Shown here one piece after another: positions 33,472-48,693 of a stretch of DNA of 64,000 nt. The notes under the pieces are model-generated. The model had not been told where the DNA came from. It worked only from the letters and a program-made list of their open reading frames with translations, and made no database searches. Position 1 is the first letter of the stretch; each line of letters starts with the position of its first letter. A program made the translations under genes and the position numbers. The DNA is from Myxococcales bacterium (GTDB lineage: Bacteria > Myxococcota_A > Polyangia > Polyangiales > GCA-016699535): NCBI GenBank assembly GCA_020633325.1, contig JACKDX010000001.1, forward strand, positions 1,587,301 through 1,651,300. Reading direction: 5' to 3'.

Positions 33472-34404
33472 CTAGTTTTCTTGAAAATACGTGTCCAAAC
33501 TAAAATATCGCTCTCCTGTGTCGCAGAGCACGGTGACTACCACGTGGTTTTCACCAAGCTCTTCAGCGAGCCTTGAGGCGATGGTCACATTGGCCCCGGC
33601 GCTGATGCCAACAAGAAGGCCTGCTTTTTCTGCAAGGGCTTTTTTTGCGCGATGCGCTTCGTAATCGGAGACACGTCGAATCTCATCCACCACGGTGGGA
33701 TCGAAGTTTCCCGGCACGAACCCCGCGCCAATCCCCTGGATTTTTGTTGGGCCTGGCTCGCCGCCCGATAATACGGGGCTGGTTTCGGGTTCCACAGCAA
33801 CTATCCTGCACGACGGGTAGTTTCGCTTAAGGACGCGGCCGACGCCCGTGATGGTACCTCCGGTCCCAACGGCGGACACAAAGGCATCCACCGGCTGTCC
33901 CTCGAGCGCACGCATGATTTCCTCCGCCGTGGTCTCGGCATGGGCAGCGGGGTTGGCGGGATTATCAAACTGCATGGGCATGAAAGCCCCGCGGCTCGCG
34001 ACGATATCCTTGGCCGCCTCGATGGCACCTTCCATCACCCGCTCGGCCTGGGTGAGGACTATCTCGGCGCCATACGCCTGCAATAACGCACGCCGCTCAA
34101 GCGACATACTCTCCGGCATCGTGAGCACCAAATGGTAACCCTTTACTGCGCAGACCAATGCGAGGCCGATGCCGGTGTTGCCGCTTGTTGGCTCGACAAT
34201 GGTATCCCCAGGACGGATTTTTCCCTCGCGTTCCGCCACTTCGATCATGGACAGACAAATGCGGTCCTTGACCGAGCCGCCAGGGTTCACGTGTTCCGCT
34301 TTTGCCCAAAGCGTTGCGGCGCCTTGAGGAGTGCAATGGGTCAGTTCCAAGAGCGGCGTATTGCCGATTAGCTCTAATACGGACTGTACTACGGGTGCGG
34401 CCAT
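33472..34404 (-). CDS. cysK: cysteine synthase A (O-acetylserine sulfhydrylase)
   Basis: Motifs IGNTPLL, NPGGSVKDR, PTSGNTGIGLA and GTGGTITG. The start lies 3 nt after the Rrf2 stop. Confidence 0.9.
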   Translation of the reverse strand: MAAPVVQSVLELIGNTPLLELTHCTPQGAATLWAKAEHVNPGGSVKDRICLSMIEVAEREGKIRPGDTIVEPTSGNTGIGLALVCAVKGYHLVLTMPESMSLERRALLQAYGAEIVLTQAERVMEGAIEAAKDIVASRGAFMPMQFDNPANPAAHAETTAEEIMRALEGQPVDAFVSAVGTGGTITGVGRVLKRNYPSCRIVAVEPETSPVLSGGEPGPTKIQGIGAGFVPGNFDPTVVDEIRRVSDYEAHRAKKALAEKAGLLVGISAGANVTIASRLAEELGENHVVVTVLCDTGERYFSLDTYFQEN

Positions 34405-34407
34405 GGG

Positions 34408-34860
34408 TTATATGACGTAGTTCAGGCGTCGCTCAGAGGCGCGACGAATCCCTAGCTGTTCGGCGTTTTGGGCCAGTTGTTCCATAGTGACGGCGTTAAA
34501 GCAGTTCTCGATTCGCTCTGAGAGTTCACGGAACGCGTGAATGATCACTTGACTCGAGCTTCCCGAGGATCTGGCTTTCGGCGACTCGGCCACGAGAGCG
34601 AGGGGCCCTTCAACTGCTCTCACCACATCCCCAACGCTGATGGCAGAGGCGGGACGCGCCAATCGATAGCCGCCACGCGGGCCGCGTTTCGAGGTCACCA
34701 AACCCGCACGCTTCAGGTCTTGGCATATCTGTTCCAAAAACCGCGACGGAATGGCCTGGCGCGCTGCAATGTCTTTGATCTGAGAGGCCTCTCCCTGGGT
34801 ATGAAAGGCCATGTCAAAGACGGCTTGTACGCCGTATCGGCCTTTGTTGGACAGTTTCAT
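34408..34860 (-). CDS. Rrf2-family transcriptional regulator without Fe-S cysteine ligands (CymR-like)
   Basis: ORF trimmed to MKLSNKGRYGVQAVFDMAFH, the typical Rrf2 N-terminus. Winged HTH IPSRFLEQICQDLKRAGLVTSKRGPRGGYRL. There are no cysteines in the region where IscR and NsrR bind their cluster. Confidence 0.82.
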   Translation of the reverse strand: MKLSNKGRYGVQAVFDMAFHTQGEASQIKDIAARQAIPSRFLEQICQDLKRAGLVTSKRGPRGGYRLARPASAISVGDVVRAVEGPLALVAESPKARSSGSSSQVIIHAFRELSERIENCFNAVTMEQLAQNAEQLGIRRASERRLNYVI

Positions 34861-34869
34861 CGCCGCTCC

Positions 34870-34898
34870 AAGATAGCGCGGCGCACCCTGCTGGTCAA
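34870..34898 (-). promoter_or_regulatory. candidate sigma-70-type promoter of the sulfur operon
   Basis: The minus strand reads TTGACC (34898..34893), 17 nt, TATCTT (34875..34870), inside the AT-richer 84-nt spacer after metH. It would give a very short or absent leader for the Rrf2 gene. Confidence 0.3.
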
Positions 34899-34944
34899 CC
34901 AAACCCTATCGGGTATGTCAAGAATAAATAAACGTCGGATAATA

Positions 34945-37900
34945 CTATGTTTTGCGTTCTGGTTCGTATCCGAGGCTGGGTCTTAGCCATCGTTCGGTCT
35001 CTTCGAGAGAAGTCCCCTTCCTGTGGGCGTATGCCTGCACCTGATCGCGATCGATGAGCCCCACCGCGAAATAATGGGCCTTGGGATGGGCAAGATAGAT
35101 GCCGCTGACGCTGGCTGCCGGCCACATCGCGAAGTTCTCGCTAAGCGTGATTCCAATCTCAGGGGCGTTCAACAACGAAAAAAGTTTGGGTTTCTCGCTG
35201 TGGTCGGGGCATGCGGGATAACCAAATGCCGGACGGATCCCGCGGTACTTCTCCGCGATCAGCTCTTGGGGACTGAATTGCTCTTCTAGCCCGTATCCAC
35301 AGTCACGACGTGCGCGCTGGTGCAGATACTCCGCGAACGCTTCGGCCAGTCGATCGGCGAGGGCTTTGGCAATGATGGCATTGTAATCGTCGAGGGCGTC
35401 ACGATATTCCGCAGCAAGTTCTTCGGCGCCTATGCCGGCCGTGACTGCAAACGCCCCAACATAATCCGCGATACCTGTCTCTTGGGGAGCGACAAAATCC
35501 GCCAAACAAAAATAGGGCTCATCCTCGGGCTTGGCTTGCTGTTGCCGCAGCATGCAAAACCTGAGCAATTCTTCTTGGCTATCAGTATGACTCACTACAA
35601 TATCGTCGCCATCAGCGTTCGCGGGCCAAAAGCCGTAAACCCCGCGCAGCGTGAAGCGGCGCTCGCGGATGATGCGATCAAGTAACTGACGTCCATGGTC
35701 GTAGAGTTCTCGTGCGGCTGCACCATAGGTGGGATGCTCTAAGATCTTGGGAAACTTCCCCTTGAGCTCCCAAGCAGTGAAGAAAAAAGTCCAGTCAATG
35801 TAGGGGACTAAATCTTCCAATGTGACATCGTCGACCACGCGACGGCCGAGGAAACTCGGTACGGCTATATCCTTCTCGGCCCAAGTGATGGCCGCTGGAT
35901 TTTCTCGTGCGATGGAGTAGGGCAGCTGGGGTTTGCGTCGTTTCTGCTCATAGAGCCGAACGAGCCTGGCTTGCTCCTTGCGGTTGTTTTCTTCAAACGC
36001 GGCCTGCCGCTCGGGCGAAAGAATATCCGCAAGGACGCCCACGACTAAAGAGGCATCGAGCACGTGCACGGTGTTGGCGTCGTACCTGGGAGCAATCTTT
36101 ACGGCCGTGTGCTGCCGGCTGGTCGTGGCCCCCCCAATCAGTAGAGGCAACTCGAATTTCTGACGTGCCATTTCATCAGCAACGTTGACCATTTCATCGA
36201 GCGAGGGGGTGATCAACCCGCTCAGGCCGATGGCGTCCGCCGCCACGTCTTTTGCAGTTTGGAGAATTTTTTCAGCCGGCACCATCACGCCAAGGTCCAC
36301 GACATCATAGTTGTTGCATCCCAAGACGACGCCGACAATGTTCTTTCCAATGTCGTGAACATCACCCTTGACGGTGGCCAAGACGATTTTCGGACGGGCT
36401 TTGGCGACGCCGCCGACTTTCTCTTTCTCCATGAAAGGCTCTAAGTAAGCCACCGCGCGTTTCATCACGCGCGCGCTCTTCACCACCTGGGGCAGAAACA
36501 TCTTTCCCGACCCAAAAAGCTCACCCACGACTTTCATACCGTCCATCAATGGGCCCTCGATGACATGTAGGGGCTTAGGATGCTTCTGCCGCGCCTCCTC
36601 CGTGTCGGCTTCTATGAAATCCACGATACCATGCACCAAAGCGTGCGAGAGTCGCGCTTCGACAGAACCTTCTCGCCAAGCGAGATCGAGGGTCTTCTTC
36701 TTGCCGATGGATCTAGCGCTTTCCGCAAAGGTAACCAGCCGTTCGGTTGCATCGGGGCGCCGATTAAATATGACATCCTCCACCTTGCTGAGCAGGTCTT
36801 CGGGAATGTCCGCGTACACCGCAAGTTGACCCGCATTGACGATGCCCATGGTCATGCCTGCTGCAATGGCGTGATACAAGAAGGACGCATGCATGGCCTC
36901 GCGTACCGTGTCATTGCCGCGGAAGGAAAACGAAAGGTTGCTGACGCCGCCACTGATTTTGGCGTGCGGGCACGCTGCTTTGATACGTCCAATTGCCTGA
37001 ATATAGTTTTTCGCGAAGTCGTTGTGCTCAGCAATGCCGGTGCCAATGGCTAGAATGTTGGGGTCAAAGAAAATGTCTTGCGCATTGAAGCCAACTTTCT
37101 CCGTAAGCAGGGAATAGGCTCGCTTGCAAATGGATACCTTCCTATCCACCGTCTCGGCTTGCCCCTCTTCATCGAACGCCATCACCACGACAGCGGCACC
37201 GTATCTCTTAACGAGCTTGGCCTTTTCGAGAAAATCGGCCTCACCCTCCTTGAGTGATAACGAGTTGACGACGCCTTTCCCCTGCACGCATTTGAGCCCC
37301 GCTTCAATGACCGACCACTTCGAGCTATCGACCATAATGGGAAGCCGCGAAATCTCCGGCTCCGACGCGATGAGATGCAAAAAAAGCGTCATCTCCTTCT
37401 CTGAGTCGAGCATGCCCTCGTCCATGTTGACATCAAGAATATTGGCACCACTACGGACCTGGTCGAGTGCGACGGCCAAAGCGTCGGAATGTTTGCGCTC
37501 TTTGATCAGTCGTGCAAAACGTTTGGACCCGGTCACATTGGTTCGCTCGCCAATCAGGACAAAGTTGGAGTCCTCTCGAATCACAAACGGTTCGAGACCG
37601 CTGAGACGCGTGAGGTGTGAGACAGGCATCTCGGCAACGTCGCGAGGCTTTATCCCCCGACATGCATTTTTTATAGCGGCGATGTGTTCGGGTGTTGTCC
37701 CACAACATCCCCCGACCAGATTGACCAGGCCATCTTCAGCCAATGCTTTTAACTGCATGGCTGTCGTGGCTGGCGTCTCCTCATACTCACCAAAGGCATT
37801 GGGCATCCCCGCGTTCGGGTAACAGCTGATATAGCAAGTGGCCAATCTGCTGAGTTCAGCAATGTAAGGCCGCATGTCCTTTGCGCCGAGCGCACAGTTG

Positions 37901-38625
37901 ACCCCGACACTCCATGGGTTGGCATGGGCAATGGAGGCCCAGAAAGCTTCAATGGTTTGCCCCGAGAGTGTGCGCCCGCTTTTATCCGTAATGGTTACCG
38001 ACACCATGATCGGTAAGTAGACCTTCTCGCGCTCACAGACCTCCTGGATGGCAAAGAGCGCAGCCTTGGCATTGAGGGTGTCAAAGATTGTCTCGACCAT
38101 GAGCAAGTCGACACCACCGTGAATGAGTCCCCGAACCTGTTCTTCGTAGGCCAAACGCACCTCATCAAACGTCACGGACCGGTATGCAGGGTCGTTTACA
38201 TCAGGCGACAAGCTGAGGGTCTTGTTGGTAGGACCGATGGCGCCCGCCACAAAACGAGGCTGCGCCGGATCCTGCTCGGTGACGATGAGCGCACAGCGCT
38301 TGGCCAGCTTGGCCGCCTCGACGTTCAGGTCGTATGCGAGATCCTGTAAGCCATAATCGGCCTGAGCGATGCGGGTGGCCGTGAAGGTGTTGGTTTCAAT
38401 GATGTCGGCGCCCGCGGTGAGAAATTGTGTATGAATGCCGGCGATAATATCGGGCTGGGTCATGACCAGCACATCGCTATTCCCTTTGAGCGCATGGGTG
38501 TGCGTACTGAATCGTTTTCCGCGAAACGCTGACTCGTCCAAGGCATGCCGCTGAATCATGGTGCCCATGGCGCCGTCGAGTATCATCAGCCGCTCTTTGA
38601 GCGTTGCTTCTAGATCTTGCTGCAT
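34945..38625 (-). CDS. metH: cobalamin-dependent methionine synthase
   Basis: 1226 aa with all modules: Hcy-binding N-terminus ([11 protein letters not shown]), pterin-binding module, B12-binding GDVHDIGKN (DxHxxG) and a C-terminal AdoMet reactivation domain. Confidence 0.95.
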
Positions 38626-38635
38626 TGGGCGGTGT

Positions 38636-39622
38636 TTACGCCGCGCTCGGCGTTGACGCCAGCCCCACCGGGATGGGTTTGACCGCGGGTGCCACGGCGC
38701 TCAATGGAATTCCCTCTAAAATCGCCACGCATAGGTCTTCAAACGTGTAGCCCAGTCCGCGAACGATTTTTGGCAGAAGACTGGCGCTTGAGGTGAGCCC
38801 CGGCAGGGTATTGACCTCAAGTACATAATCATTGCCGCCTTCGGTGACCATCATATCCACACGGGTGGCGCCGATAGCCCCCACGCTCCGATTGGCTTTC
38901 TCGGCGACATCGAGAAGCGTCTGATAGCGGCTCGGGCTGACGCGGGCGGGGAAATGGTAGGTACTCTGGCCCGCTTGATACTTCGCCTGATAATCATAAA
39001 ATTCCCCCAAAGGCTCGATCTCTATTGCGCCCAAGGGCTTTCCATGCAGCAACCCAACTTGAATCTCCTGTCCCTGAATATAGCGCTCGACAAGCACATC
39101 GCCCGGAAATTGGCTTGCAAGCTTTACCCCAGCATGAAGTTCCGTGAGCGATGCGGCTTTGGAGCTTCCTACGCTTGAGCCTTGGCTCCGGGGTTTGATA
39201 AACACAGGAAAGCCAAAGGATCCGTGCGCTTGCTCGGCTTCTTCGAGTGTGTCCGGTTCGAGGACATAATAAGGCGGCGTAGGCACGTTGTAGAGGCGGA
39301 ATAATTCTTTCGCCTTCACCTTATCCATCGCCAAAGCACTCGCCAGCACGCCAGAGCCCGTGTACGGGATGCCCAACAGTTCCAAGAGGCCCTGAATGCA
39401 GCCATCTTCGCCGTAGGTGCCATGGAGCGCTATGAATGCGACGTCGATCGGATCTTGGCGCAACACCTTATCGATGTCGCGATCGACGAATACGGTGACA
39501 GCATCGTAGCCACGTGAAACCAGTGCTCGATGCACGCATTCGCCAGTTTTTAATGAGATCTCCCGCTCGGCACTGAGTCCGCCCATCAATACACCAACGC
39601 GTTTTTCTCGATACTTCGTCAC
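38636..39622 (-). CDS. ddl: D-alanine--D-alanine ligase
   Basis: ATP-grasp fold. Motifs [22 protein letters not shown] and EVNTLPGLT. Confidence 0.93.
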
Positions 39623-39679
39623 AGGACGGCCCTAGCAAGAGAGCGGGTCCCGGTCAACAAAACACCCAATTTCGGGGGA

Positions 39680-39955
39680 CTACCGCAGATAACGGTCTAG
39701 GTACTTGTTCACCTGTGCTTCAATGGCCCCCTTTAGGGGTCTTAGCATCAGCCCTAGCTCCACGCTGACGTGGACCAACGAATCGCTCACGGCCACCTGC
39801 CCTTTGGCGCCTGTCCTCTCGAATTTGAGCACGTCGCCCTCCCAATGGGACTGCACCTGTAGTTTGTTGGTGAGCTCTGTGCTGAGCGCGTCTGCGGCTT
39901 TGCGCGCCGCATCCTTGCCAAGGGTATGTGCGCGTCGAATGTCGATGCCGGGCAT
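39680..39955 (-). CDS. putative polyhydroxyalkanoic acid system protein (PHA_gran_rgn family)
   Basis: 91 aa. The pattern MPGIDIRRAHTLGKDAARKAADAL...W.GD.L.F.R.GAKG...V....V.V...LG matches my recollection of this small family. Confidence 0.6.
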   Translation of the reverse strand: MPGIDIRRAHTLGKDAARKAADALSTELTNKLQVQSHWEGDVLKFERTGAKGQVAVSDSLVHVSVELGLMLRPLKGAIEAQVNKYLDRYLR

Positions 39956-39992
39956 GGCGCGAACCTACCCAAAAGAGAGCAGAAGTCAATGA

Positions 39993-40021
39993 TTGCAACA
40001 GAGCCTACGGAATGGTAGAAT
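39993..40021 (+). promoter_or_regulatory. candidate sigma-70 promoter with extended -10
   Basis: TTGCAA (39993-39998), 17 nt, then TGgTAGAAT (-10 at 40016-40021). It implies a leader of about 145 nt before the ATG at 40173. Confidence 0.35.
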
Positions 40022-40172
40022 CCCGGCGCAGGCGACATGTTGCAAGATTGTCACCATAGAGCATTCAAAGGTGCGCTAGAGCCGACCAGGGAGGACGGTT
40101 CGCGCCATCTTTACCACGAGGAAACAATCCTCGACATCAACTCACATTCACTCCCTATTTCAAGGAATTTTC

Positions 40173-41897
40173 ATGACTTTTACGGAAGCAGCGGTGGCCG
40201 TGCTTCGCCATGCCGGACGGCCGCTCCATTACAAAAAAATCACCGAACTGGCGATTGAAAACAACCTACTTTCTCACGTCGGGAAAACCCCAGAGGTGAC
40301 GATGAGCGCCAGGCTGGCGATGCTGGCCAAGAAGCCCGATGGAGGGCTTGAGGTGGTCAAGGTTAAGCCGGGCGTCTTCGGCCTCAAGGAATTCGGAGAC
40401 GCTATACTGACGCGAGCTTCGGCAGACGGAGCCGAGGGAGAGGATATAGAAGTGATGATGCAACCCCAAGAAGAAGACCGTTCAGTCTCGGAAAATCAAG
40501 AGGATAACGGCCAAACATCGAACGCGGCGCCAGCCCAACCAGAATCGGGTGCGCAGCTCTTCCCTGACGAGGATGACGATGATGAACCGATTTTGGCGGG
40601 TCTTGATGAGGGGCGTGCAGATCCCAAGCGCGGTCGGCGCCGCCGGCGTCGCCGCCCGGGCCGAGGTGCATCGAGCGCAGGGCAGCCCACGGGCGCTGTG
40701 CGTGCGCGTGAATCCGGCCAGGGCAATGGTGGCCGCTCGCCCCAGAGTCGAGAGCAAAGAGATCGATACGATGTGGCTGGTGATTGGGATCGTCTGCCCG
40801 AGGATAACGACTTAATTGGAAAAAGCCTTTCAGACGCTGCGCACGCCGTCATGGCGGCAGGCACGACGCGGCAGGGCTCGACGCTTGAGCGCATTGCACA
40901 TCAACTCGTTCAAAAGGGCCGCCTTCAGGGGGACCCGCAGGCACTTGTGCCCACGGTCGCCGCGGCGCTTCGCGCGGACAACGCATGTCGAACCCAAGCT
41001 CAAGAGCGCTTGAGATTTCGCGTCCACGCCAATCTCGTCTGGCTCACAGATTGGCTACTGCCGACGGACGCTATTCGCCTAGAGCGCGACGTCACGCGGG
41101 GAGCAGAACAACAACGCCTTGCTGTGCGGAAGGTGTTCTTAAAGCAACTCAGAGCGTTGCCCTTGACGGGATTTGCTGAATTCGTGGCATCATGGCTGAA
41201 CGCAGAAGGCGTCACGTCGGTGCGTGCGATTCGCCGCCCGGGAAGCTCCGCCTCTCAGCTACACTTTGCCGGGGTGCTCCACCAAGGGCAAAGCGAGATG
41301 CACCTTGCGGTGGTGATGCTCAGGGACGGTCAAGACATAGACAAGAGTTTGGTCGAACAAACCCGGGGGGCGCTACATCACTATGGCCAGGCCAATGTTG
41401 CATGGCTGGTGACGCTCGGCCAGGTACGTCCAGACGCGAGGCAGGAAGGTAATGTCAGTGGCGTTGCACCGGCGGTCCTGTTTGACGGCCTTGAATGGGC
41501 TGAAGCCCTCGAAAATCGAAGCATCGGTCTCTCTAAGACCTATGTTGCTCTCACGGTGCCCCAGTTTGAGTTGCTCGCGGCCTTGAGCGGGGCGGTGGAG
41601 CCGGACACACAAGCCCTCGAGTCCGAAGAAGGGCGGGAGGGGCGCAGCGGATGGGCACAGCAGTCCTCGGGACCGAGGAGACGTCGAGGAGGACGCGGCT
41701 TTCGGCGAGATCAGGCGCAGTCCGATGATGACGGCGATAACGATGGACAAGAAGCTGCTTCTTCCGATATTGATCGCAACGGGCAAGAGCCACCGCTGCT
41801 CGACGAGGATGAGTCCGAGAACGACAATGGCCCCTATGCCTCGGACGAGAGTGCTGACGGCGACGATGATGACGTCGATCAGGACGACTCCAACTGA
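40173..41897 (+). CDS. HARE-HTH domain protein with Arg/Gly-rich and acidic disordered regions and an Mrr-like (restriction endonuclease fold) domain
   Basis: N-terminus MTFTEAAVAVLRHAGRPLHYKKITELAIENNLL.HVGKTPE.TM.A.L...VKPGVFGLKEF is a HARE-HTH signature. Residues about 330-440 (FAEFVASWLNAEGV...HLAVVMLRDG...VAWLVTLG) resemble an Mrr_cat core. The tail is poly-acidic (DGDDDDVDQDDSN). AAGGA RBS upstream. Confidence 0.78.
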   Translation: MTFTEAAVAVLRHAGRPLHYKKITELAIENNLLSHVGKTPEVTMSARLAMLAKKPDGGLEVVKVKPGVFGLKEFGDAILTRASADGAEGEDIEVMMQPQEEDRSVSENQEDNGQTSNAAPAQPESGAQLFPDEDDDDEPILAGLDEGRADPKRGRRRRRRRPGRGASSAGQPTGAVRARESGQGNGGRSPQSREQRDRYDVAGDWDRLPEDNDLIGKSLSDAAHAVMAAGTTRQGSTLERIAHQLVQKGRLQGDPQALVPTVAAALRADNACRTQAQERLRFRVHANLVWLTDWLLPTDAIRLERDVTRGAEQQRLAVRKVFLKQLRALPLTGFAEFVASWLNAEGVTSVRAIRRPGSSASQLHFAGVLHQGQSEMHLAVVMLRDGQDIDKSLVEQTRGALHHYGQANVAWLVTLGQVRPDARQEGNVSGVAPAVLFDGLEWAEALENRSIGLSKTYVALTVPQFELLAALSGAVEPDTQALESEEGREGRSGWAQQSSGPRRRRGGRGFRRDQAQSDDDGDNDGQEAASSDIDRNGQEPPLLDEDESENDNGPYASDESADGDDDDVDQDDSN

Positions 41898-41909
41898 GGA
41901 GCCGCTCGT

Positions 41910-43574
41910 TTAAATATATGCCGTGGGGTGGTATTCGCCCCACGCATCTCTCAATGCATCACTGATCTCGCCCAGGGTGGCGCCAGCTTGAGCGGCTTCG
42001 ACAATCTGAACCATGAGATTGCCATCTCCCATCGCGGTTTTGCGCACCGTTTCACAGGCGCGGGCGGCTTCATCCGGCTCGCGCGCTTGACGAAAGGCAG
42101 CAAGCCTCTCTATTTGACGCGGACCGTAGGCGCGTTCAGTATCAGCCGACTGTGTTTGCGGCTCGGACTCGTCTTTGAATCGGTTGGTCCCCACAACCAC
42201 TCGCTTTTGAGATTCCACCTCGAGCTGAGCCTGGTATGCGGTGTTCTGAATCTCCTTTTGCACGTAGCCTTTAGCGATGGCATTGGGCATTCCTCCAATC
42301 TTCTCGATGTGATCGAGGTAACGTTGTGCCTGACCTTGGAGCCTGTCCGTCATGGCCTCGATGGCGTAGCTGCCCCCCATCGGGTCCACCGTGTCTGTGA
42401 CGCCACTTTCATAGGCCAGGACTTGTTGCGTGCGTAAGGCGAGGGTGGCCGCTGTCTGAGAAGGTAACGACAGCGCCTCATCGTAGCCATTGGCGTGCAG
42501 AGATTGACAGCCCCCCAGGACCGCACTCAGCGCTTGGAGCGTGACGCGGGCGGCATTGACCAAGGGTTGATGGGCCTGCAAAGTGGAGCCGGCAGTTTGG
42601 GCATGAAACCGCAGCATGCACGCGGCGGGATCTGTCGCACCAAACCGGTCGCGCATGATCGTTGCCCACATGCGACGTGCAGCCCGAAACTTCGCCACTT
42701 CCTCCAGCAAGTGATTGTGCGCATTGAAGAAAAACGATAGCTGTCTGCCGAAAATATTCGGCCCAAGGCCGGCTTCTTTCGCCGTCTTCACGTACGTTAT
42801 GGCGTTGCTTAGGGTAAAGGCGATTTCCTGTGCGGCGTCACATCCTGCTTCGCGCATGTGATACCCGCTTACCGAGATCGGGTGCCAACGTGGAACGTGT
42901 TCCGCACACCAGACGAACAGGTCGCGACTCAAACGCAGCGATTCCTTGACCGGATAGATATATGTGCCGCGGGCGATGTATTCTTTCAGGATATCGTTTT
43001 GGACCGTCCCTTTGAGCGTTTCAATGCGGACGCCCTGCTCCTTGGCCACAGTGACGTAGAACGCCAGAAGGATTGGGGCGGTGGCGTTGATGGTCATCGA
43101 AGTCGAAATCGCGTTCAAATCAATGCCACGCAACAGCATTCGCATATCGTCGATGGTGTCGATGGCCACGCCGACTTTCCCGACCTCTGCTTGCGCCAGA
43201 GGATGGTCGCTGTCGCGTCCCATTTGGGTGGGCAGATCGAAGGCAACGCTAAGTCCCGTTTGGCCCTGCTCAAGCAAATGGCGGTATCGTTGGTTAGATT
43301 CTTCAGCGTCGCCAAAGCCCGCATATTGTCGCATGGTCCAGAGCCGGCCCCGATACATGTTGGGTTGCACACCGCGTGTGAAAGGGAAAGCTCCCGGGAA
43401 TCCGAGCTTCGCCTCATAATCATTTTCCGTCGGGGCGTGCGGGGGGACGTAGATACATTCGGCATCTTTGCCGTCGCTCAACAGGATGCTGCGCTCGCGG
43501 ACCGGATGCTGTGCTTCAAACCGCGCAAGATTCGCGCGCCACTCCGCAAAAGCCTGCTTAAGGTCACCACTCAT
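41910..43574 (-). CDS. methylmalonyl-CoA mutase family, catalytic (TIM-barrel) subunit only
   Basis: Motifs FPFTRGV, MYRGRLWTMRQYAGFG, GLSVAFDLPTQ and the NDILKEY region. 554 aa with no C-terminal B12-binding domain. Confidence 0.9.
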   Translation of the reverse strand: MSGDLKQAFAEWRANLARFEAQHPVRERSILLSDGKDAECIYVPPHAPTENDYEAKLGFPGAFPFTRGVQPNMYRGRLWTMRQYAGFGDAEESNQRYRHLLEQGQTGLSVAFDLPTQMGRDSDHPLAQAEVGKVGVAIDTIDDMRMLLRGIDLNAISTSMTINATAPILLAFYVTVAKEQGVRIETLKGTVQNDILKEYIARGTYIYPVKESLRLSRDLFVWCAEHVPRWHPISVSGYHMREAGCDAAQEIAFTLSNAITYVKTAKEAGLGPNIFGRQLSFFFNAHNHLLEEVAKFRAARRMWATIMRDRFGATDPAACMLRFHAQTAGSTLQAHQPLVNAARVTLQALSAVLGGCQSLHANGYDEALSLPSQTAATLALRTQQVLAYESGVTDTVDPMGGSYAIEAMTDRLQGQAQRYLDHIEKIGGMPNAIAKGYVQKEIQNTAYQAQLEVESQKRVVVGTNRFKDESEPQTQSADTERAYGPRQIERLAAFRQAREPDEAARACETVRKTAMGDGNLMVQIVEAAQAGATLGEISDALRDAWGEYHPTAYI

Positions 43575-45049
43575 TTTTTTGATGACATGATGATGCGCGC
43601 CAAAGCCTCAGAAACCGCGTAACTCAGCGTACGAATGCGCTCGTGGCCAAAATTGCCATAAAGCGGACCGTCGGCGCAGAGCATGGCCACGATACGACCA
43701 TGCAAAAAGATGGGTTCTATCAGAAGTTCCGGTCCCCGGCTCGCGGTGGCGGAGCGAAATAACACGTCCGCGGCATGCGTGCCGTGAGGACCCATATAAC
43801 TTTCCCCCGTCGCCAGAACTTTCTGAAAAACCGAGGCGGTTTCTGTAGGAATCCAAATCTTTCGGATGGCTTCACGTGGCACGCCCACGCCCGCCGCTTC
43901 CCGCCCCTCTAGTGTGCCCTTGCGCAACACGAGTGCGACGGCGAGTGCGGCGACAGAGGCGGCTCCGTAGCACGCAAACCTCAAAATTTGATCGCTGTCC
44001 CGGCTCGCCCGAATGCTGGCCAACGTCGGACCGATACTGGGAGGCTCTGGCTCCTCGCTGGGACGAAAAGAGCGCATCCGCTCACCAATTGCGCTACCTC
44101 TGCGTACGCTTTGTGCATTGCTCGGCATGGCCCGCGTGCTTCGGGCATGGTGCCTAGAAACCGCTGCACCATCTTCTGGCAGCAGGTCAGACCATGAGCG
44201 TTCCGAGGCAGACACTTGGGGCCGAGCCTCGATTTCCGAATGCTCTGCCACCGATGCCGGCGGATTATACGAAACGGTGGTTTCTGGCGCAAACGAATCC
44301 GCTGCGGGGCGGTGCTGAGAAGGGGTGAGAGGACGGGAAGCGCTTGCACGTTGCGAAACCCCGCGGGGTGCGCGTTGGCCCGAATGCGAGGCTGCCAAGG
44401 GGATAAACATATGTTCGTCCGCGAACCCCGGCACCGAAGGAGGTCTGAGCGTGCCAGTAGGCCCGTGGGCCCGTGCCGCGCGCGGCACTTTAGCGCTGTG
44501 TTGCGCTTCGTCAGGGAAGGGGCGCTCATCGGCAGGCCACGAGGAGGATTGCATATGGTTACGCAGCCAGGATGCCGGGCGGTGCGTGACTTGGCGGACC
44601 CCGTCGTCGGTGCGCGCCGTGTCCACCTGTTGATACGCATGCTCGATGGCCACCCGCAAGTCTGAAACGAAGGACACCTTTGGAATCACGTCCATGCTTG
44701 CAGCAAGCGACAGCTCGTGGATCAGGTGCGGGTCCGTGGGATCCGCCATGGCGGTGATAAGTCCCTGCTCGGTGGTGCGAATCGGCAGCGCCAAGAGCTC
44801 TCGCGCCATCTCTTCAGGTACCCGCTCCACTGCGCTCGGTGCAGCCGTGGCCAGCTCTTCTATCGTGATGAGTGGGCCGTAGCCGTCGCCCAAAAACACT
44901 CCGGCGAGCGCTTCTTCGTTAAGTCCTTGCTCAATCAGTCGCGCCGCAAGGATGCCGCCGTCGAGTTGGGTGGCGGCCAGCGCGTGGGCCAGCTGGTCCC
45001 GGCTGATGAGACCGGCTCGCACCAAACGCGTGCCCAGATCGGAGAACAT
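43571..45049 (-). CDS. T2SSE_N (MshEN-like) domain protein with disordered linker and C-terminal GAF-like domain
   Basis: The N-terminal ~140 aa (LGTRLVRAGLISRDQLAHALAATQ...LLALPIR...ITAMADPTD) resemble the GspE/MshE N-terminal domain. A Pro/Ser/Ala-rich middle follows. The C-terminus looks GAF-like (assignment weak). ATGA overlap with the downstream mutase gene. Confidence 0.7.
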   Translation of the reverse strand: MFSDLGTRLVRAGLISRDQLAHALAATQLDGGILAARLIEQGLNEEALAGVFLGDGYGPLITIEELATAAPSAVERVPEEMARELLALPIRTTEQGLITAMADPTDPHLIHELSLAASMDVIPKVSFVSDLRVAIEHAYQQVDTARTDDGVRQVTHRPASWLRNHMQSSSWPADERPFPDEAQHSAKVPRAARAHGPTGTLRPPSVPGFADEHMFIPLAASHSGQRAPRGVSQRASASRPLTPSQHRPAADSFAPETTVSYNPPASVAEHSEIEARPQVSASERSWSDLLPEDGAAVSRHHARSTRAMPSNAQSVRRGSAIGERMRSFRPSEEPEPPSIGPTLASIRASRDSDQILRFACYGAASVAALAVALVLRKGTLEGREAAGVGVPREAIRKIWIPTETASVFQKVLATGESYMGPHGTHAADVLFRSATASRGPELLIEPIFLHGRIVAMLCADGPLYGNFGHERIRTLSYAVSEALARIIMSSKK

Positions 45050-45107
45050 AGCTCAGAAGTACAGCCGGATAGTAGTTGAGTCCAGATAGTAATGTTAACC
45101 TGCGCTA

Positions 45108-46211
45108 ATGGCTGGGGGTTTGCCACGTGATTTGCGGAGGATTCTGCTTATCAGCGCTTCTTCATCCTCGATGGATGCAGCGGCCTGCGCCCTCGTTGCC
45201 GCCGGACACGGTGTAGTGTCGGCCAAGGATGGCCCCGAAGCTCGGAAAGCGGCGTTGGCCCATCTGCCGGACTTGGTGCTTGTCGAAGGGGATCTCGGCA
45301 ATGCTGATCACGCGGGGATAGCGGTCCAACTTCAGGACATTCCTGGATTCGATGCGGTTCCCATCATTCCGCTTCCCTCCATCGATGGCGCCTTAGCGGT
45401 GCTACAGGAACAGAACCGTACACTTCATGAGTCAAACCGTAGACTCGAGCACATGGCACGTTTACGCCGTGACTTTTTGCGAAACATCACGCACGAGCTC
45501 GCGACACCGCTTACGCCGGTCATTGGATACGTCGGACTGTTGCTTGAGGAACAACTGGGGCCGCTGAGTCCGCTTCAGAAACAAAGCCTCACATCGATGC
45601 GCAACTCGGCAGAGCGTCTGCGGTTCCTCATCGACACGCTGCTTGACATGAGTTTGCTTGAAAGCGGCAGCATGCATTTTTACGAAAGCGCCTATGACTT
45701 TGCCCATATGGCCGGACAGGCGGTTGATGCCATTCAGCCACGGGCCCAAGAGGCCAACGTGAGAGTGAGGGCACGCATTCCTGGAGATTCTTTGGCGGCG
45801 ATGGGTGATTCAGAAAAACTCCGCCGCGCTGTCTTGCATGTGCTCGATAACGCCATCAAGTTTACCCCGCGAGGCGGCAAGGTGGCAGTAGAGGTCGTCA
45901 CCGAGACCGATGCAGGCGATGTCTATTACGTGATTCGAATCGCGGACAGCGGCGCGGGCATCGATGCGGAGCAGCTTGAGCACATATTTGAGCCATTTTA
46001 TCAAGTGGATGGCTCTCCGACCCGAGCCCACGGCGGAATGGGTCTCGGATTGGCATTTGCCAGGCGGGTGGCCCGGGCGTTTGGTGGCGATGCAAAGATA
46101 GAGAGCCCGCCTGTTCAGTCGGTTGCGGGTCTATCGCTCAGGGGCACAGCGGTGACCCTTAGCGTCCGGGCTAAAATGCCGTCTCGATCGAATCCCGATA
46201 AAGTGGCATAA
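45108..46211 (+). CDS. sensor histidine kinase with N-terminal receiver-like domain
   Basis: H-box FLRNITHELATPLTPVIGY, N-box LDNAIKFTP, G-boxes DSGAGI and GGMGLGLAFARR. The N-terminal ~110 aa are receiver-shaped but lack the acidic pocket. Confidence 0.85.
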   Translation: MAGGLPRDLRRILLISASSSSMDAAACALVAAGHGVVSAKDGPEARKAALAHLPDLVLVEGDLGNADHAGIAVQLQDIPGFDAVPIIPLPSIDGALAVLQEQNRTLHESNRRLEHMARLRRDFLRNITHELATPLTPVIGYVGLLLEEQLGPLSPLQKQSLTSMRNSAERLRFLIDTLLDMSLLESGSMHFYESAYDFAHMAGQAVDAIQPRAQEANVRVRARIPGDSLAAMGDSEKLRRAVLHVLDNAIKFTPRGGKVAVEVVTETDAGDVYYVIRIADSGAGIDAEQLEHIFEPFYQVDGSPTRAHGGMGLGLAFARRVARAFGGDAKIESPPVQSVAGLSLRGTAVTLSVRAKMPSRSNPDKVA

Positions 46212-46278
46212 CTCGCCCCACGGCCCTCTTGGGCCAGTGCCGAAGGGACCCATCCCATCCGAACGACGGAGACTGCGT

Positions 46279-47397
46279 ATGCTGTATTTTGATTATCACG
46301 CCGCGAGCCCCCCGTGCACCGCCGCGCGCGAGGCAATGTCCCTGGCCGAGGCGGTCGCTTGGGCGAATCCTTCAAGCATCCATCAAGCAGGTCGCCAGGC
46401 GCGACAATGGTTAGAGCAAGCGCGGGGGCAGGTGGCGGATGCCATCGGAGCACAATTGAGCGAAGTGATTTTTACCTCGGGAGGAACGGAGGCATGCAAT
46501 CTGGGGCTCCGGGGACTTCTCTGCACGCGACCTGCGCGCGTCGTCACGACGCCTGTCGAGCATCCGGCGGTGACAAATGTAATCCGCGAGTGGGAGCGCC
46601 AGGGCACCGAGGTGGTATCTCTCCCGGTGGATGGCTCAAGGGTTCCGAGTGCAGCACAGCTTGAAGAAGTATTGCAAACGCCGACCGAACTTGTGGCCGT
46701 TCAATGGGTTAACCACGAAACCGGCATGGTGTTCCCCATCGCCGGCTATGCGGAAGTATGCTTCAAAAGCGGCGTGCCCCTCTTTGTCGATGGCACACAG
46801 GCGCTTGGCAAAATTCCTATCAATGTCAAGGGGCTCGGAGTGACCGCCATGGCATTTGCGTCTCACAAGATGGGGGGGCCCGCGGGCGTTGGCGCGCTTT
46901 GGGTCACGCCAGAGCGAGATGTTGAACCGGTCCTGCGAGGCGGCGCGCAAGAAAAAGGTCGTCGCCCCGGGAGTCCGGATGTGGTTTCCTTGGCGGGGTT
47001 TGGTGCAGCGGCGGCGCGCGTGGCTGACCGGCTTGGGCAGCTCAAAGCGATCGGTAAGCTGCGCGACTCGCTCGAAGCGTTTCTAAGGACACTCGGGGCT
47101 AGCGTGAACGCAGATGGCGCGCTTAGAGTGGCGACTGTGACCAACGTCAGCTTTCCCGGGGTGCGCGCCGATACGCTTGTGCCCGCGCTCGATGTAGAAG
47201 GCCTATGTGTCTCAAGCGGCTCGGCGTGCTCCTCAGGGCTCGTGCGCGTCAGTCCAGTGCTCGAAGCCATGTATCCTGAAGAATCCTGGCGCGCGAGCAG
47301 TGCGGTCCGCTTCAGTCTAGGACCCGAGATCACCCCAGAGGACATCGAGACTGCTAAAGGCATTATGCGGCAAGTCCTGTCGAGATTTTCATCTTAA
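46279..47397 (+). CDS. cysteine desulfurase (NifS/IscS class V aminotransferase)
   Basis: ORF trimmed to MLYFDYHAASPP. PLP lysine SHKMGGP and catalytic loop SSGSACSSG. It precedes mnmA. Confidence 0.88.
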   Translation: MLYFDYHAASPPCTAAREAMSLAEAVAWANPSSIHQAGRQARQWLEQARGQVADAIGAQLSEVIFTSGGTEACNLGLRGLLCTRPARVVTTPVEHPAVTNVIREWERQGTEVVSLPVDGSRVPSAAQLEEVLQTPTELVAVQWVNHETGMVFPIAGYAEVCFKSGVPLFVDGTQALGKIPINVKGLGVTAMAFASHKMGGPAGVGALWVTPERDVEPVLRGGAQEKGRRPGSPDVVSLAGFGAAAARVADRLGQLKAIGKLRDSLEAFLRTLGASVNADGALRVATVTNVSFPGVRADTLVPALDVEGLCVSSGSACSSGLVRVSPVLEAMYPEESWRASSAVRFSLGPEITPEDIETAKGIMRQVLSRFSS

Positions 47398-47511
47398 TAC
47401 GAATTTGAGATTTATGATCCGAAACTCTGCCTGTCCGCGCAATTGCGATATAACTCCCTGAAACATAGAGGGTTGCGGAAGTTGGCTTCATGGATGTTCC
47501 TGATCTATTGA

Positions 47512-48693
47512 ATGGAATCACTCACCCACAATCCTAGATACGTCTGTTCAGATCCCATGCCCCAACACGTCCCGCTCACACAAGGTCGTTTCGATCGTCA
47601 AGCTGATTCATTCGCCTCAAGCGCCTCCCCAAAACGTTCGGCCGTCCGAATCGTGGTGGCCATGAGTGGAGGTGTCGATTCCTCCGCGGCAGCAGCGCTT
47701 CTCCAGGAGCAGGGTTACGATCTGGTCGGGGTCACGTTGCACCTGTGGGATGCTGAGCCAGGCCGACAGCCCGGTCGGTGCTGTGCGCCGGAGGATCAGG
47801 AGGACGCCCGACGGGCATGCGAGGCTTTGGGGATTCCGCACTACGTGCTCAATGAAACCGCCGCATTTCGAGCCGAGGTCGTCGATCCCTTTCTTGAGAG
47901 TTACACACGTGGCAGTACGCCCGTGCCATGTGTATCGTGCAATCAGCACGTGAAGCTCGGCAGGCTCATCGAGGTCGCGGACGCGTTTGGTGCCACGTAT
48001 GTAGCCACGGGACATTACGCCCGTCTTCAGACGAACGAGACTGGAGGCCTTGAGGTTTTGCGTGGCATCGATCGAGATAAGGATCAAAGCTATTTCCTGT
48101 TTGGTGTCCCCGCCTCCACACTAGAGCGGTTCATGTTTCCCCTTGGGGAGATGACCAAGCCCGTCGCACGCATGCATGCTGAACGCCTTGGCGTGCCCAA
48201 CTGGAGTAAGCCCGACTCGCAGTCCCTATGTTTTGTGCCGGACAACGACATCGCGGGATTTGTGTCCCGCCAGTCGGGTCCGCAGCCTCATGGACACATT
48301 ATGGATGAATCCGGGGCAGTTTTGTCGCGACACAGCGGAATTCATCAATTTACCATAGGACAGCGCCGCCGTCTAGGCATCACGGGGAAAGAGCCCAGAT
48401 ATGTGCTGAAAATCGTCCCCGAGGACCATGTCGTCGTAGTCGGGTCGCGTGCGGCACTAGCTCGCCGCACATTCAGTGCCAGCCGTGCATCCTGGCTGAT
48501 CGAGAAGCCTCGCAACCCATTTCGCGCGCTTGTCCGCATCCGTTATCGGCATGAGCCGAGCCCCGCCGAGGTCACGCCCACGCAGGGGGGCTTCTCGGTA
48601 GAGTTTGAATGTGAGCAAACCGCTATCACCCGCGGACAGGCTGCTGTGATCTATAAGAACGAGACCCTCGTTGCAGGTGGCTACATTGATTAG
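47512..48693 (+). CDS. mnmA: tRNA 2-thiouridine(34) synthase MnmA (start uncertain; N-terminal extension)
   Basis: PP-loop VAMSGGVDSS, motifs CCAPEDQEDA and RGIDRDKDQSYFL. Alternative start at ATG 47557. Confidence 0.88.
   Translation: MESLTHNPRYVCSDPMPQHVPLTQGRFDRQADSFASSASPKRSAVRIVVAMSGGVDSSAAAALLQEQGYDLVGVTLHLWDAEPGRQPGRCCAPEDQEDARRACEALGIPHYVLNETAAFRAEVVDPFLESYTRGSTPVPCVSCNQHVKLGRLIEVADAFGATYVATGHYARLQTNETGGLEVLRGIDRDKDQSYFLFGVPASTLERFMFPLGEMTKPVARMHAERLGVPNWSKPDSQSLCFVPDNDIAGFVSRQSGPQPHGHIMDESGAVLSRHSGIHQFTIGQRRRLGITGKEPRYVLKIVPEDHVVVVGSRAALARRTFSASRASWLIEKPRNPFRALVRIRYRHEPSPAEVTPTQGGFSVEFECEQTAITRGQAAVIYKNETLVAGGYID

Follow-up and report, generated by a model that had tools for sequence, protein, structure and literature searches.

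The 64,000-nucleotide window analyzed here (positions 1,587,301 to 1,651,300 of contig JACKDX010000001.1 from a Myxococcales bacterium, assembly GCA_020633325.1) contains, at 40173-41897 on the forward strand, one complete open reading frame (ORF) of 574 amino acids with an ATG start and its stop codon included, exactly where an initial annotation of the same DNA had placed it. The start codon is supported by the residues M1-T2-F3-T4, which do not vary across 72 aligned homologues, and the ORFs that overlap the interval in other frames are the usual by-product of a G+C content of 58-60%. The product is 100% identical to the database entry P0001, which NCBI labels 'restriction endonuclease [Myxococcales bacterium]'. 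The analyses described below make it very probable that the protein has a housekeeping role in binding nucleic acid and is no restriction enzyme. It is built from the following elements.

40173..41897, + strand: complete ORF, 574 amino acids, stop included
40173..40397, + strand: HARE-HTH domain, residues 1-75, the most conserved part of the protein (Pfam PF05066, AlphaFold2 (AF2))
40398..40541, + strand: acidic disordered linker, residues 76-123, net charge -10 (predicted local distance difference test (pLDDT) <50)
40542..40598, + strand: conserved acidic short linear motif, residues 124-142 (fixed length, identity 0.76)
40599..40790, + strand: basic disordered segment, residues 143-206, containing the poly-Arg tract KRGRRRRRRRPGRG (from composition)
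40791..41060, + strand: second winged-helix-like domain (wH2), residues 207-296 (AF2 pLDDT 90-97)
41061..41156, + strand: long connecting helix, residues 297-328 (AF2 helix 298-327, pLDDT >94)
41157..41588, + strand: Mrr_cat-type PD-(D/E)xK fold without D...QxK, residues 329-472 (Pfam PF04471, hhalign, Foldseek)
41589..41894, + strand: disordered C-terminal tail, residues 473-574, with an Arg patch and then a poly-acidic end (AF2, charge count)

The two domains named in the initial annotation, an N-terminal HARE-HTH and an Mrr-like core, are both recovered above their Pfam cut-offs. HARE-HTH (PF05066) covers residues 1-74 (E = 4e-14, 53.2 bits against a cut-off of 25.9, profile positions 1-71 of 71), and Mrr_cat (PF04471) covers residues 327-445 (E = 2e-7, 31.5 bits against a cut-off of 21, profile positions 2-114 of 115), with distant clade members reaching E = 1e-15 against the latter profile. 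An AF2 model built from a 72-sequence alignment (mean pLDDT 73.9) contains two confidently folded parts, residues 1-75 and residues 207-472 (the latter with pLDDT mostly 94-98), and predicts disorder at residues 85-205 and 490-574; low-complexity, disordered sequence makes up about 40% of the protein. The N-terminal domain displays an H-H-H-beta-beta topology (H3-14, H20-29, H40-52, E61-65, E68-71), so that the assignment to HARE-HTH is carried both by the PF05066 threshold and by the winged-helix topology with an insert between helices 2 and 3. Residues 329-472 follow the alpha-beta-beta-beta-alpha-beta order of the restriction endonuclease (REase) type, and the connecting helix at residues 297-328 aligns with the helix that precedes the catalytic domain of E. 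coli Mrr (EcoKMrr). The C-terminal half thus looks like a complete Mrr-type enzyme, to which a HARE-HTH domain and charged disordered regions have been added. Foldseek searches of the full model against the Protein Data Bank (PDB) returned MspJI (2e-4), AspBHI, FokI, EndoMS, the Mrr-like AF1548 (1y88) and many Rpb5 chains; MspJI and AspBHI are modification-dependent PD-(D/E)xK enzymes. No true relative turned up when PDB sequences were searched with the whole protein, the family profile, the REase profile, HARE alone or wH2 alone, and the matches were mostly of low complexity.

The initial annotation did not mention wH2, the long helix at residues 297-328, the 19-residue acidic motif, the second Arg patch or the restriction of the acidic tail to one branch of the family. 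When modeled by itself, wH2 is again predicted with confidence (pLDDT 90.5), and its top PDB folds are winged helices that bind DNA, from linker histone H1/H5 (globular domain), forkhead, E2F/DP and ScpB (TM-score 0.5-0.6, E > 0.4 in Foldseek). The possibility that it is a second HARE-HTH was considered and is not demonstrated: none of nine wH2 sequences has a Pfam match at E <= 10, PF05066 and Mrr_N included; the Foldseek matches are generic winged helices; and an hhalign comparison with the family's own HARE domain spans 68 columns of matching topology but gives E = 0.04 and a probability of 1.3%. On its predicted fold, wH2 is best described as a generic winged helix and not as a proven second HARE-HTH. 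A kinship of wH2 to the dihydrodipicolinate synthase 4nq1, proposed by a single-sequence phmmer search (E = 1.7e-4), was also discarded, as the family profile fails to reproduce it and it is probably a chance compositional match.

The catalytic site of the Mrr-like domain was then compared with that of the E. coli enzyme. The mrr sequence of E. coli K-12 was fetched, 120 genuine EcoKMrr relatives were gathered, and their profile was aligned to the REase-domain profile of the family (hhalign probability 82%, E = 1e-5, 151 columns). The alignment pairs E172 of Mrr with E336 of the window protein, D199 with Q362, D203 with A366, G204 with G367, Q219 with V381, K221 with L383 and R222 with R384. 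The QxK position is anchored because the stretch R384...G399-A400-L401 aligns without gaps with R222...G237-A238-L239 of Mrr. The segments in which the initial annotation had failed to find catalytic residues by eye, HFAGVL (residues 364-369) and HLAVVMLRDG (residues 377-386), are the beta2 and beta3 strands of the REase fold (AF2, pLDDT >95). The motif of Mrr has been described as PD-QxK (PMC11037411), and D203A is an engineered catalytic mutant of the E. coli enzyme (PMC5435990); in the window protein, Ala, Val and Leu occupy the positions of D203, Q219 and K221. The protein belongs to Mrr_cat by sequence and lacks the D...(Q/E)xK motif of a type IV REase (A366, V381, L383).

The same replacements are found throughout the family. 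Position 366 is Ala in 119 of 120 close homologues; across 106 representatives that span the whole clade, down to about 30% identity, it is Ala, Ser or Thr in 98 and never Asp or Glu. Among the close homologues, position 381 is V/I/L/T/A and position 383 mostly hydrophobic. In the family, positions 380-382 are aliphatic almost throughout. None of the 106 representatives has (D/E/Q)xK in any ±1 register, and none has Asp or Glu at positions 365-367. The two ways of locating the D203 equivalent differ: the profile alignment points to A366, whereas in the hairpin register of the AF2 model (beta2 362-371, beta3 374-383) the residue across the strand from 383 is 362. Position 362 is Glu or Asp in 93 of the 106 representatives, but Gln in the window protein, so that most members may have kept an acidic residue close to the former site. 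Whichever alignment is used, the (E/Q)xK half is missing and the classical nuclease site is predicted to be dead. The column counts in the close homologues and the clade representatives together indicate that the degeneracy is real and family-wide, not peculiar to the window gene. Alignment of these residues had been named in advance as the place where an intact D-ExK site might emerge and overturn the initial view of the protein; no such site was found. Matches to PF22722 (NA-iREase1) were considered as a sign of inactivity and dropped, as genuine E. coli Mrr relatives carry the same precomputed match; the family's name, 'NACHT-associated inactive Restriction Endonuclease 1', is thus no indication that a matching protein is inactive. 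Some clade members score below threshold against this family (26.2 bits at best, cut-off 27), and the window protein does not match it.

The disordered regions combine blocks of opposite charge, in agreement with the acidic and Arg-rich region noted in the initial annotation. The linker at residues 76-142 has a net charge of -18 and is followed by the Arg tract KRGRRRRRRRPGRG (residues 152-165, nt 40626-40667). The last part of the linker, residues 124-142, reads ESGAQLFPDEDDDDEPILA in the window protein, against a family consensus of LPGADVFPEEEDDDEPILA, and is exactly 19 residues long in all of 120 homologues, with a mean pairwise identity of 0.76; conservation reaches at least 90% at P125, G126, F130, P131, E133, D136, D137 and L141, and I140 never varies. 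The orthologue of Pajaroellobacter abortibovis carries this motif as FDDEEDDDQPILL. Composition is likewise retained among family members: the median D+E fraction of the acidic linker is 0.27, and so is the median Arg fraction of the basic segment (residues 143-206). The poly-Arg run always comes after the acidic motif, in Pajaroellobacter and Sandaracinus too. The tail (residues 473-574) has a net charge of -22; its Arg patch PRRRRGGRGFRR (residues 501-512, nt 41673-41708) precedes a poly-acidic end of 61 residues with a net charge of -24. The extreme acidity ascribed to the tail in the initial annotation is thus borne out for this protein, and the net charge of the distal tail lies below -0.15 per residue in 104 of the 120 close homologues. 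It does not extend to the clade as a whole, as in the Polyangiaceae branch, Pajaroellobacter included, the acidic tail is absent and the proteins end right after the REase fold. The clade-wide feature is the internal acidic motif followed by the poly-Arg tract, not the C-terminal acidic tail.

The orthologue of Sandaracinus amylolyticus (P0079) contains long perfect RD/RE dipeptide repeats, RDRDRDRDRDRD... and RERDRERDRERG, at about residues 195-255 and 530-575. These repeats fill both of its disordered regions; the window protein has none, only the poly-Arg tract.

A whole-protein search retrieved more than 1,200 proteins; those of the best 120 that bear a name are assigned to Myxococcales, Polyangiales, Sandaracinaceae, Myxococcota or, more broadly, Deltaproteobacteria/Proteobacteria, with Sandaracinus amylolyticus among them. 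With the C-terminal module alone, a search of 1.84 billion representatives yields only 265 proteins at E <= 1e-3, which indicates a small and sharply bounded clade that is separate, at the sequence level, from ordinary Mrr enzymes. A scan of one genome per GTDB species gave 174 confirmed loci, and the neighborhood counts rest on the best 80 of them, nearly all from metagenome-assembled genomes (MAGs) labeled Myxococcota, with one locus per genome. Across these 80 loci the recurrent order is PALP-Rrf2-ddl(-), gene(+), MshEN(-), histidine kinase, iscS, mnmA(+), where PALP is cysK-like, and ddl adjoins the gene in 63 of the 80. In the window, the neighbors are metH, ddl, a PHA-granule protein, methylmalonyl-CoA mutase, an MshEN-domain protein, a histidine kinase, iscS and mnmA; the syntenic stretch runs from 33475 to 48690, and its gene order is strongly conserved over dozens of Polyangiales MAGs (loci L010-L054). 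The gene is present in one copy within the window, and there is no methyltransferase among its ten neighboring genes (about ±8 kb), so that the earlier description of a single gene, lying among core genes and without a methylase partner, agrees with what is seen here, the gene order being conserved in most of the best 80 loci.

In a distant branch, at 30-37% identity, the HARE-HTH, the motif, the poly-Arg tract, wH2 and the dead REase fold are all kept, and the acidic tail is lacking. P. abortibovis (Polyangiaceae), with a complete genome of 1.82 Mb, belongs to this branch, and its orthologue lies immediately upstream of yceD-rpmF-fabH-fabD-fabG-acpP-fabF; other members of the branch adjoin murB, topA and dprA. 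The stable housekeeping synteny and the survival of the gene through genome reduction argue strongly against a role in defense and indicate an important cellular function. The phyletic and synteny comparison, which the initial annotation had put forward as a check, thus points to a gene that is vertically inherited and core-genomic in Polyangiales, not a defense gene, and its product is probably an important, conserved core protein of that order.

Conservation is unevenly distributed along the protein. Mean pairwise identity in the 120 homologues is 0.81 for HARE-HTH, 0.76 for the acidic motif, 0.51 for wH2, 0.48 for the connecting helix and 0.56 for the REase fold. The protein has 50 invariant positions and 68 nearly invariant ones, and HARE-HTH contains 28 that are invariant. 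The strongest constraint thus acts on HARE-HTH and the acidic motif, the pattern expected if both bind an invariant macromolecular partner. No informative conserved partner gene emerged from the survey of neighbors.

Several further features were recorded at these loci. A promoter-like site (39993..40021, + strand; TTGCAA-17-TAGAAT with an upstream TG) lies about 150 nt before the ATG, although the consensus scan that located it found 2 sites against 0.8 ± 0.9 expected and so provides weak evidence. In the window, metH (34945-38625) sits between Rrf2 and ddl, and the methylmalonyl-CoA mutase gene (41910-43574) sits between the HARE/Mrr gene and the MshEN gene. A PHA_gran_rgn gene of 91 amino acids (39680-39955, - strand; Pfam E = 5e-29) lies between ddl and the target and is there in only 8 of the 80 loci. 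In one locus (L020), an unrelated secreted protein occupies the gap between the gene and the MshEN gene. Two loci of the tail-less branch (L082, 10166-11074; L083, 9718-10593) have a conserved lipoprotein gene of about 290-300 amino acids following the gene with an overlapping or adjacent stop and start; the product carries a signal peptide and a Cys lipobox and has no Pfam match. In the same two loci a divergent gene of 105-115 amino acids, also without a Pfam match, precedes the target. Homologues of these two genes are lacking both in the main-branch loci and in the window. Locus L047 (CAXMND010000139.1, labeled 'uncultured Coxiellaceae bacterium') shows the full Polyangiales synteny PALP-Rrf2-ddl-gene-MshEN-HK-iscS-mnmA (HK, histidine kinase), so that a binning error probably accounts for its taxonomic label; L048 ('Pseudomonadota') and L015 ('Proteobacteria') are likely to be myxobacterial as well.

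The explanation that we favor, and consider somewhat better than evenly balanced, is that the protein is a nuclease-dead, domesticated descendant of an Mrr-type enzyme that acts as a bind-and-release nucleic-acid scaffold and is inherited vertically as a housekeeping protein of Polyangiales. The initial annotation had judged it unlikely to be an active restriction enzyme, and this judgment is upheld by the clade-wide replacement of D...QxK, the single gene, the housekeeping neighbors and the orthologue in a 1.82-Mb genome. Starting from the observed domain architecture, loss of catalytic residues, conservation pattern, synteny and phyletic distribution, we infer binding partners and roles for the charged regions as follows. 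The near-invariant HARE-HTH would dock on a highly conserved partner, either DNA or RNA polymerase (RNAP), as in the delta subunit of Firmicutes. The module formed by wH2 and the dead Mrr domain would bind but not cut nucleic acid, a behavior known from other inactivated PD-(D/E)xK domains (PMC3424549), and would probably oligomerize, as Mrr does. The poly-Arg tract could lend non-specific affinity for nucleic acid, and the acidic segments (the invariant FPEEEDDDEPIL motif in all members and, in the branch of the window protein, also the long C-terminal poly-acidic tail) could act as electrostatic competitors of nucleic acid or shield basic surfaces of the protein itself. The outcome would be a tunable, delta-like 'bind and release' behavior. 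A role in transcription or chromosome organization through nucleic-acid binding is the most likely, and the protein may be associated with RNAP or with the nucleoid; the initial annotation likewise proposed a chromatin- or RNAP-associated factor, possibly with a DNA-mimicking tail.

A bolder version of this idea, which we regard as rather unlikely, takes the protein for a Polyangiales RNAP accessory subunit, a delta analogue fused to a dead nuclease fold resembling the Rpb5 jaw. In this unlikely arrangement, HARE-HTH and perhaps the FPEEEDDDEPIL motif would dock on RNAP, and wH2 and the dead Mrr domain would contact downstream or upstream DNA; the alternating poly-Arg and poly-acidic disorder would, as part of the same scheme, modulate the retention of nucleic acid or drive transcription condensates.

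A number of observations weigh against the scaffold interpretation and its analogy with delta. The acidic tail cannot be essential to the core function, because the Polyangiaceae branch lacks it. The fold matches of wH2 are statistically weak (E > 0.4). The hhalign comparison of the HARE-HTH with the N-terminal domain of B. subtilis delta gives only E = 0.07 and a probability of 0.8%, phmmer searches of the PDB found no delta chain, and an NCBIfam scan of the 574-residue protein returned no families, with delta-subunit models included in the scan. A specific kinship between the two N-terminal domains, beyond membership of a shared Pfam family, was accordingly set aside as not significant. Finally, polar residues near the old active site are retained across the 106 representatives: E336 in 97, Glu or Asp at 362 in 93, H364 in 88, and Arg or Lys at 384 in 99. 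Because a purely structural relic would not need conserved polar residues, these hint at a ligand-binding or non-canonical catalytic site.

This last point leads to an alternative that we consider improbable, in which the REase fold has taken on a new role as a non-canonical enzyme or a ligand pocket that uses E336, E362, H364, R384, R398 and H402; possible forms are a metal-independent RNase with Glu/His/Arg chemistry, similar to the tRNA-splicing endonucleases, or a sensor of small molecules or nucleotides. The residues conserved in the fold are E336, H364, R384, R398, H402, W411 and E425, and the polar residues of the proposed site are kept in about 83-100% of clade members although the classical triad is gone. 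The AF2 strand register puts E362 and H364 on the face of the beta2-beta3 hairpin that the former QxK positions also occupy, and the superfamily offers a precedent in the tRNA-splicing endonucleases, which have an alternative active site (PMC3424549). However, position 362 is Gln in the window protein and A/T/G/S/C/R in several others, and H364 is replaced in 18 of the 106 representatives, a degree of variation that is unusual for catalytic residues; moreover, there is no sequence or fold match to any RNase family in Pfam or Foldseek.

About equally doubtful is the proposal that the protein is an RNA-binding or condensate scaffold, for example in RNA decay or ribosome biogenesis, with its blocks of opposite charge driving phase separation. 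Such blocks do occur twice, from acidic to poly-Arg in the linker and from the Arg patch to poly-acidic in the tail, and the dipeptide repeats of the Sandaracinus orthologue would suit this role, as would the position of the Pajaroellobacter gene directly upstream of yceD-rpmF, where rpmF encodes ribosomal protein L32. On the other hand, all three folded modules come from families best known for binding double-stranded DNA or RNAP, and the link to rpmF comes from a single genome and is not shared by the main branch.

It is highly improbable that the protein is an ordinary, active REase of the Mrr type (type IV, modification-dependent) in which HARE-HTH and wH2 read modified DNA. The database label, the Mrr_cat match above the Pfam cut-off and a C-terminal half that can be aligned with EcoKMrr through its last residue would all suit this reading, as would the proposal that HARE-HTH is a reader of modified DNA (PMC11037411). 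The PADLOC candidate defense model PDC-S02 also matches the Mrr domain at residues 302-460 with E = 2e-8 (E = 1e-14 for the Pajaroellobacter orthologue), and automated defense-system finders could flag this housekeeping gene falsely. Set against these points, the D203/Q219/K221 equivalents are Ala/Val/Leu and the site is non-catalytic in 106 of 106 representatives, where D203A by itself makes a catalytic-null E. coli Mrr; and the patchy, mobile or defense-island distribution of type IV REases is not what is seen, the stable housekeeping synteny and the retention of the gene in the 1.8-Mb genome of Pajaroellobacter being the opposite of that pattern. That the gene is merely a decaying, functionless pseudo-enzyme, a dead restriction gene awaiting loss, is suggested by the lost catalytic residues and the low-complexity, disordered two-fifths of the protein and is effectively refuted by the conservation data, as the ORF is intact in several hundred species diverged to 30-45% identity, with its invariant and nearly invariant positions, its fixed-length motif, its charge patterns conserved within disorder and its retention after genome reduction.

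The combination of HARE-HTH with Mrr_cat is already known as a Pfam architecture, as are inactive PD-(D/E)xK domains and acidic tails of the delta type. What appear to be undescribed are the clade-wide inactivation, the core-genomic status restricted to Polyangiales, the extra winged helix and the invariant acidic motif with its poly-Arg tract; a search of the literature on HARE-HTH, with the founding HARE-HTH paper outside that search, found no description of the clade. Several hundred myxobacterial genomes label the gene 'restriction endonuclease' or 'HTH domain-containing protein', and the evidence presented here points to neither a defense gene nor a nuclease. The family would represent a clean case of a selfish or defense enzyme of the Mrr type that was domesticated into housekeeping and in which a HARE-HTH is unusually combined with a second winged helix, a dead PD-(D/E)xK fold and charged disordered regions similar to those of delta. 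If the protein is associated with RNAP or the nucleoid, it would be a new lineage-specific component of bacterial transcription or chromosome organization and a bacterial counterpart of eukaryotic Rpb5; if it is a true RNAP subunit, bacteria would have independently recruited a restriction enzyme to their core transcription machinery, in parallel with Rpb5. The practical outcome is a correction of the annotation and a testable target, with Sandaracinus amylolyticus culturable and Pajaroellobacter keeping the gene after genome reduction.

Aravind and Iyer reportedly described, in 2012, fusions of HARE-HTH to REase domains as components of restriction and DNA-modification systems, in which the nucleases are presumably active. 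The clade described here shares the HARE-HTH and Mrr_cat architecture of those restriction-modification fusions and differs from them in being inactivated, rich in disorder, core-genomic and restricted to Polyangiales. NA-iREase1 (PF22722) also has an inactivated REase fold; the window protein is distinguished from it by the lack of a PF22722 match and of a NACHT context, and the similarity that they share is a general resemblance to Mrr_cat.

EcoKMrr and other Mrr-type type IV REases have the same order of winged helix, long helix and Mrr_cat PD-(D/E)xK domain, and the detectable homology to EcoKMrr (the profile match given above) reaches the last residue of Mrr. The Glu of alpha1 (E172/E336), the Gly that follows the catalytic Asp (G204/G367) and R222/R384 are retained, whereas D203, Q219 and K221 have been replaced. 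In addition, the window protein has a HARE-HTH, a charged linker of about 130 residues and, in its own branch, an acidic tail of about 100 residues; its wH2 has no Pfam match to Mrr_N; and its gene is vertically inherited in a housekeeping neighborhood and does not lie in a defense island.

The comparison with Rpb5 of eukaryotic RNAP I-III concerns the N-terminal 'jaw' domain, an inactive PD-(D/E)xK fold that serves as a structural module of the transcription machinery (PMC3424549) and shares with the window protein the catalytically inactive fold. The Rpb5 chains in the Foldseek list have E-values from 2e-3 to 4e-2 and probabilities of up to 1.0, but the likeness is at the level of the fold only (TM-score about 0.35-0.41 on the target, root-mean-square deviation 10-12 Å over about 180 columns), and the window protein has no Pfam match to Rpb5_N (PF03871). 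These matches are best taken as membership of a common fold, with no common descent indicated beyond the superfamily.

The RNAP delta subunit (RpoE) of Firmicutes, in which the N-terminal domain holds a polyanionic tail at the edge of the main channel of RNAP and the tail sweeps that channel, competing with nucleic acids and displacing them (PMC7749165), differs from the window protein in its phylum (Bacillota against Myxococcota) and in its size, as delta has 173 amino acids and no further folded domain, whereas the window protein carries the winged-helix and dead-REase module. The likeness lies in the order and charge of the parts. In both proteins an N-terminal HARE-HTH is directly followed by a long, disordered polyanionic region (here residues 76-142, net charge -18, although poly-Arg and two folded domains come after it), and in both a short basic tract lies beside an acidic run, KAKKKKAKK in B. 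subtilis delta (7f75_L), where it precedes the acidic run, and poly-Arg in the window protein. On this analogy, the Firmicute delta subunit would be the closest mechanistic counterpart of the Polyangiales protein.

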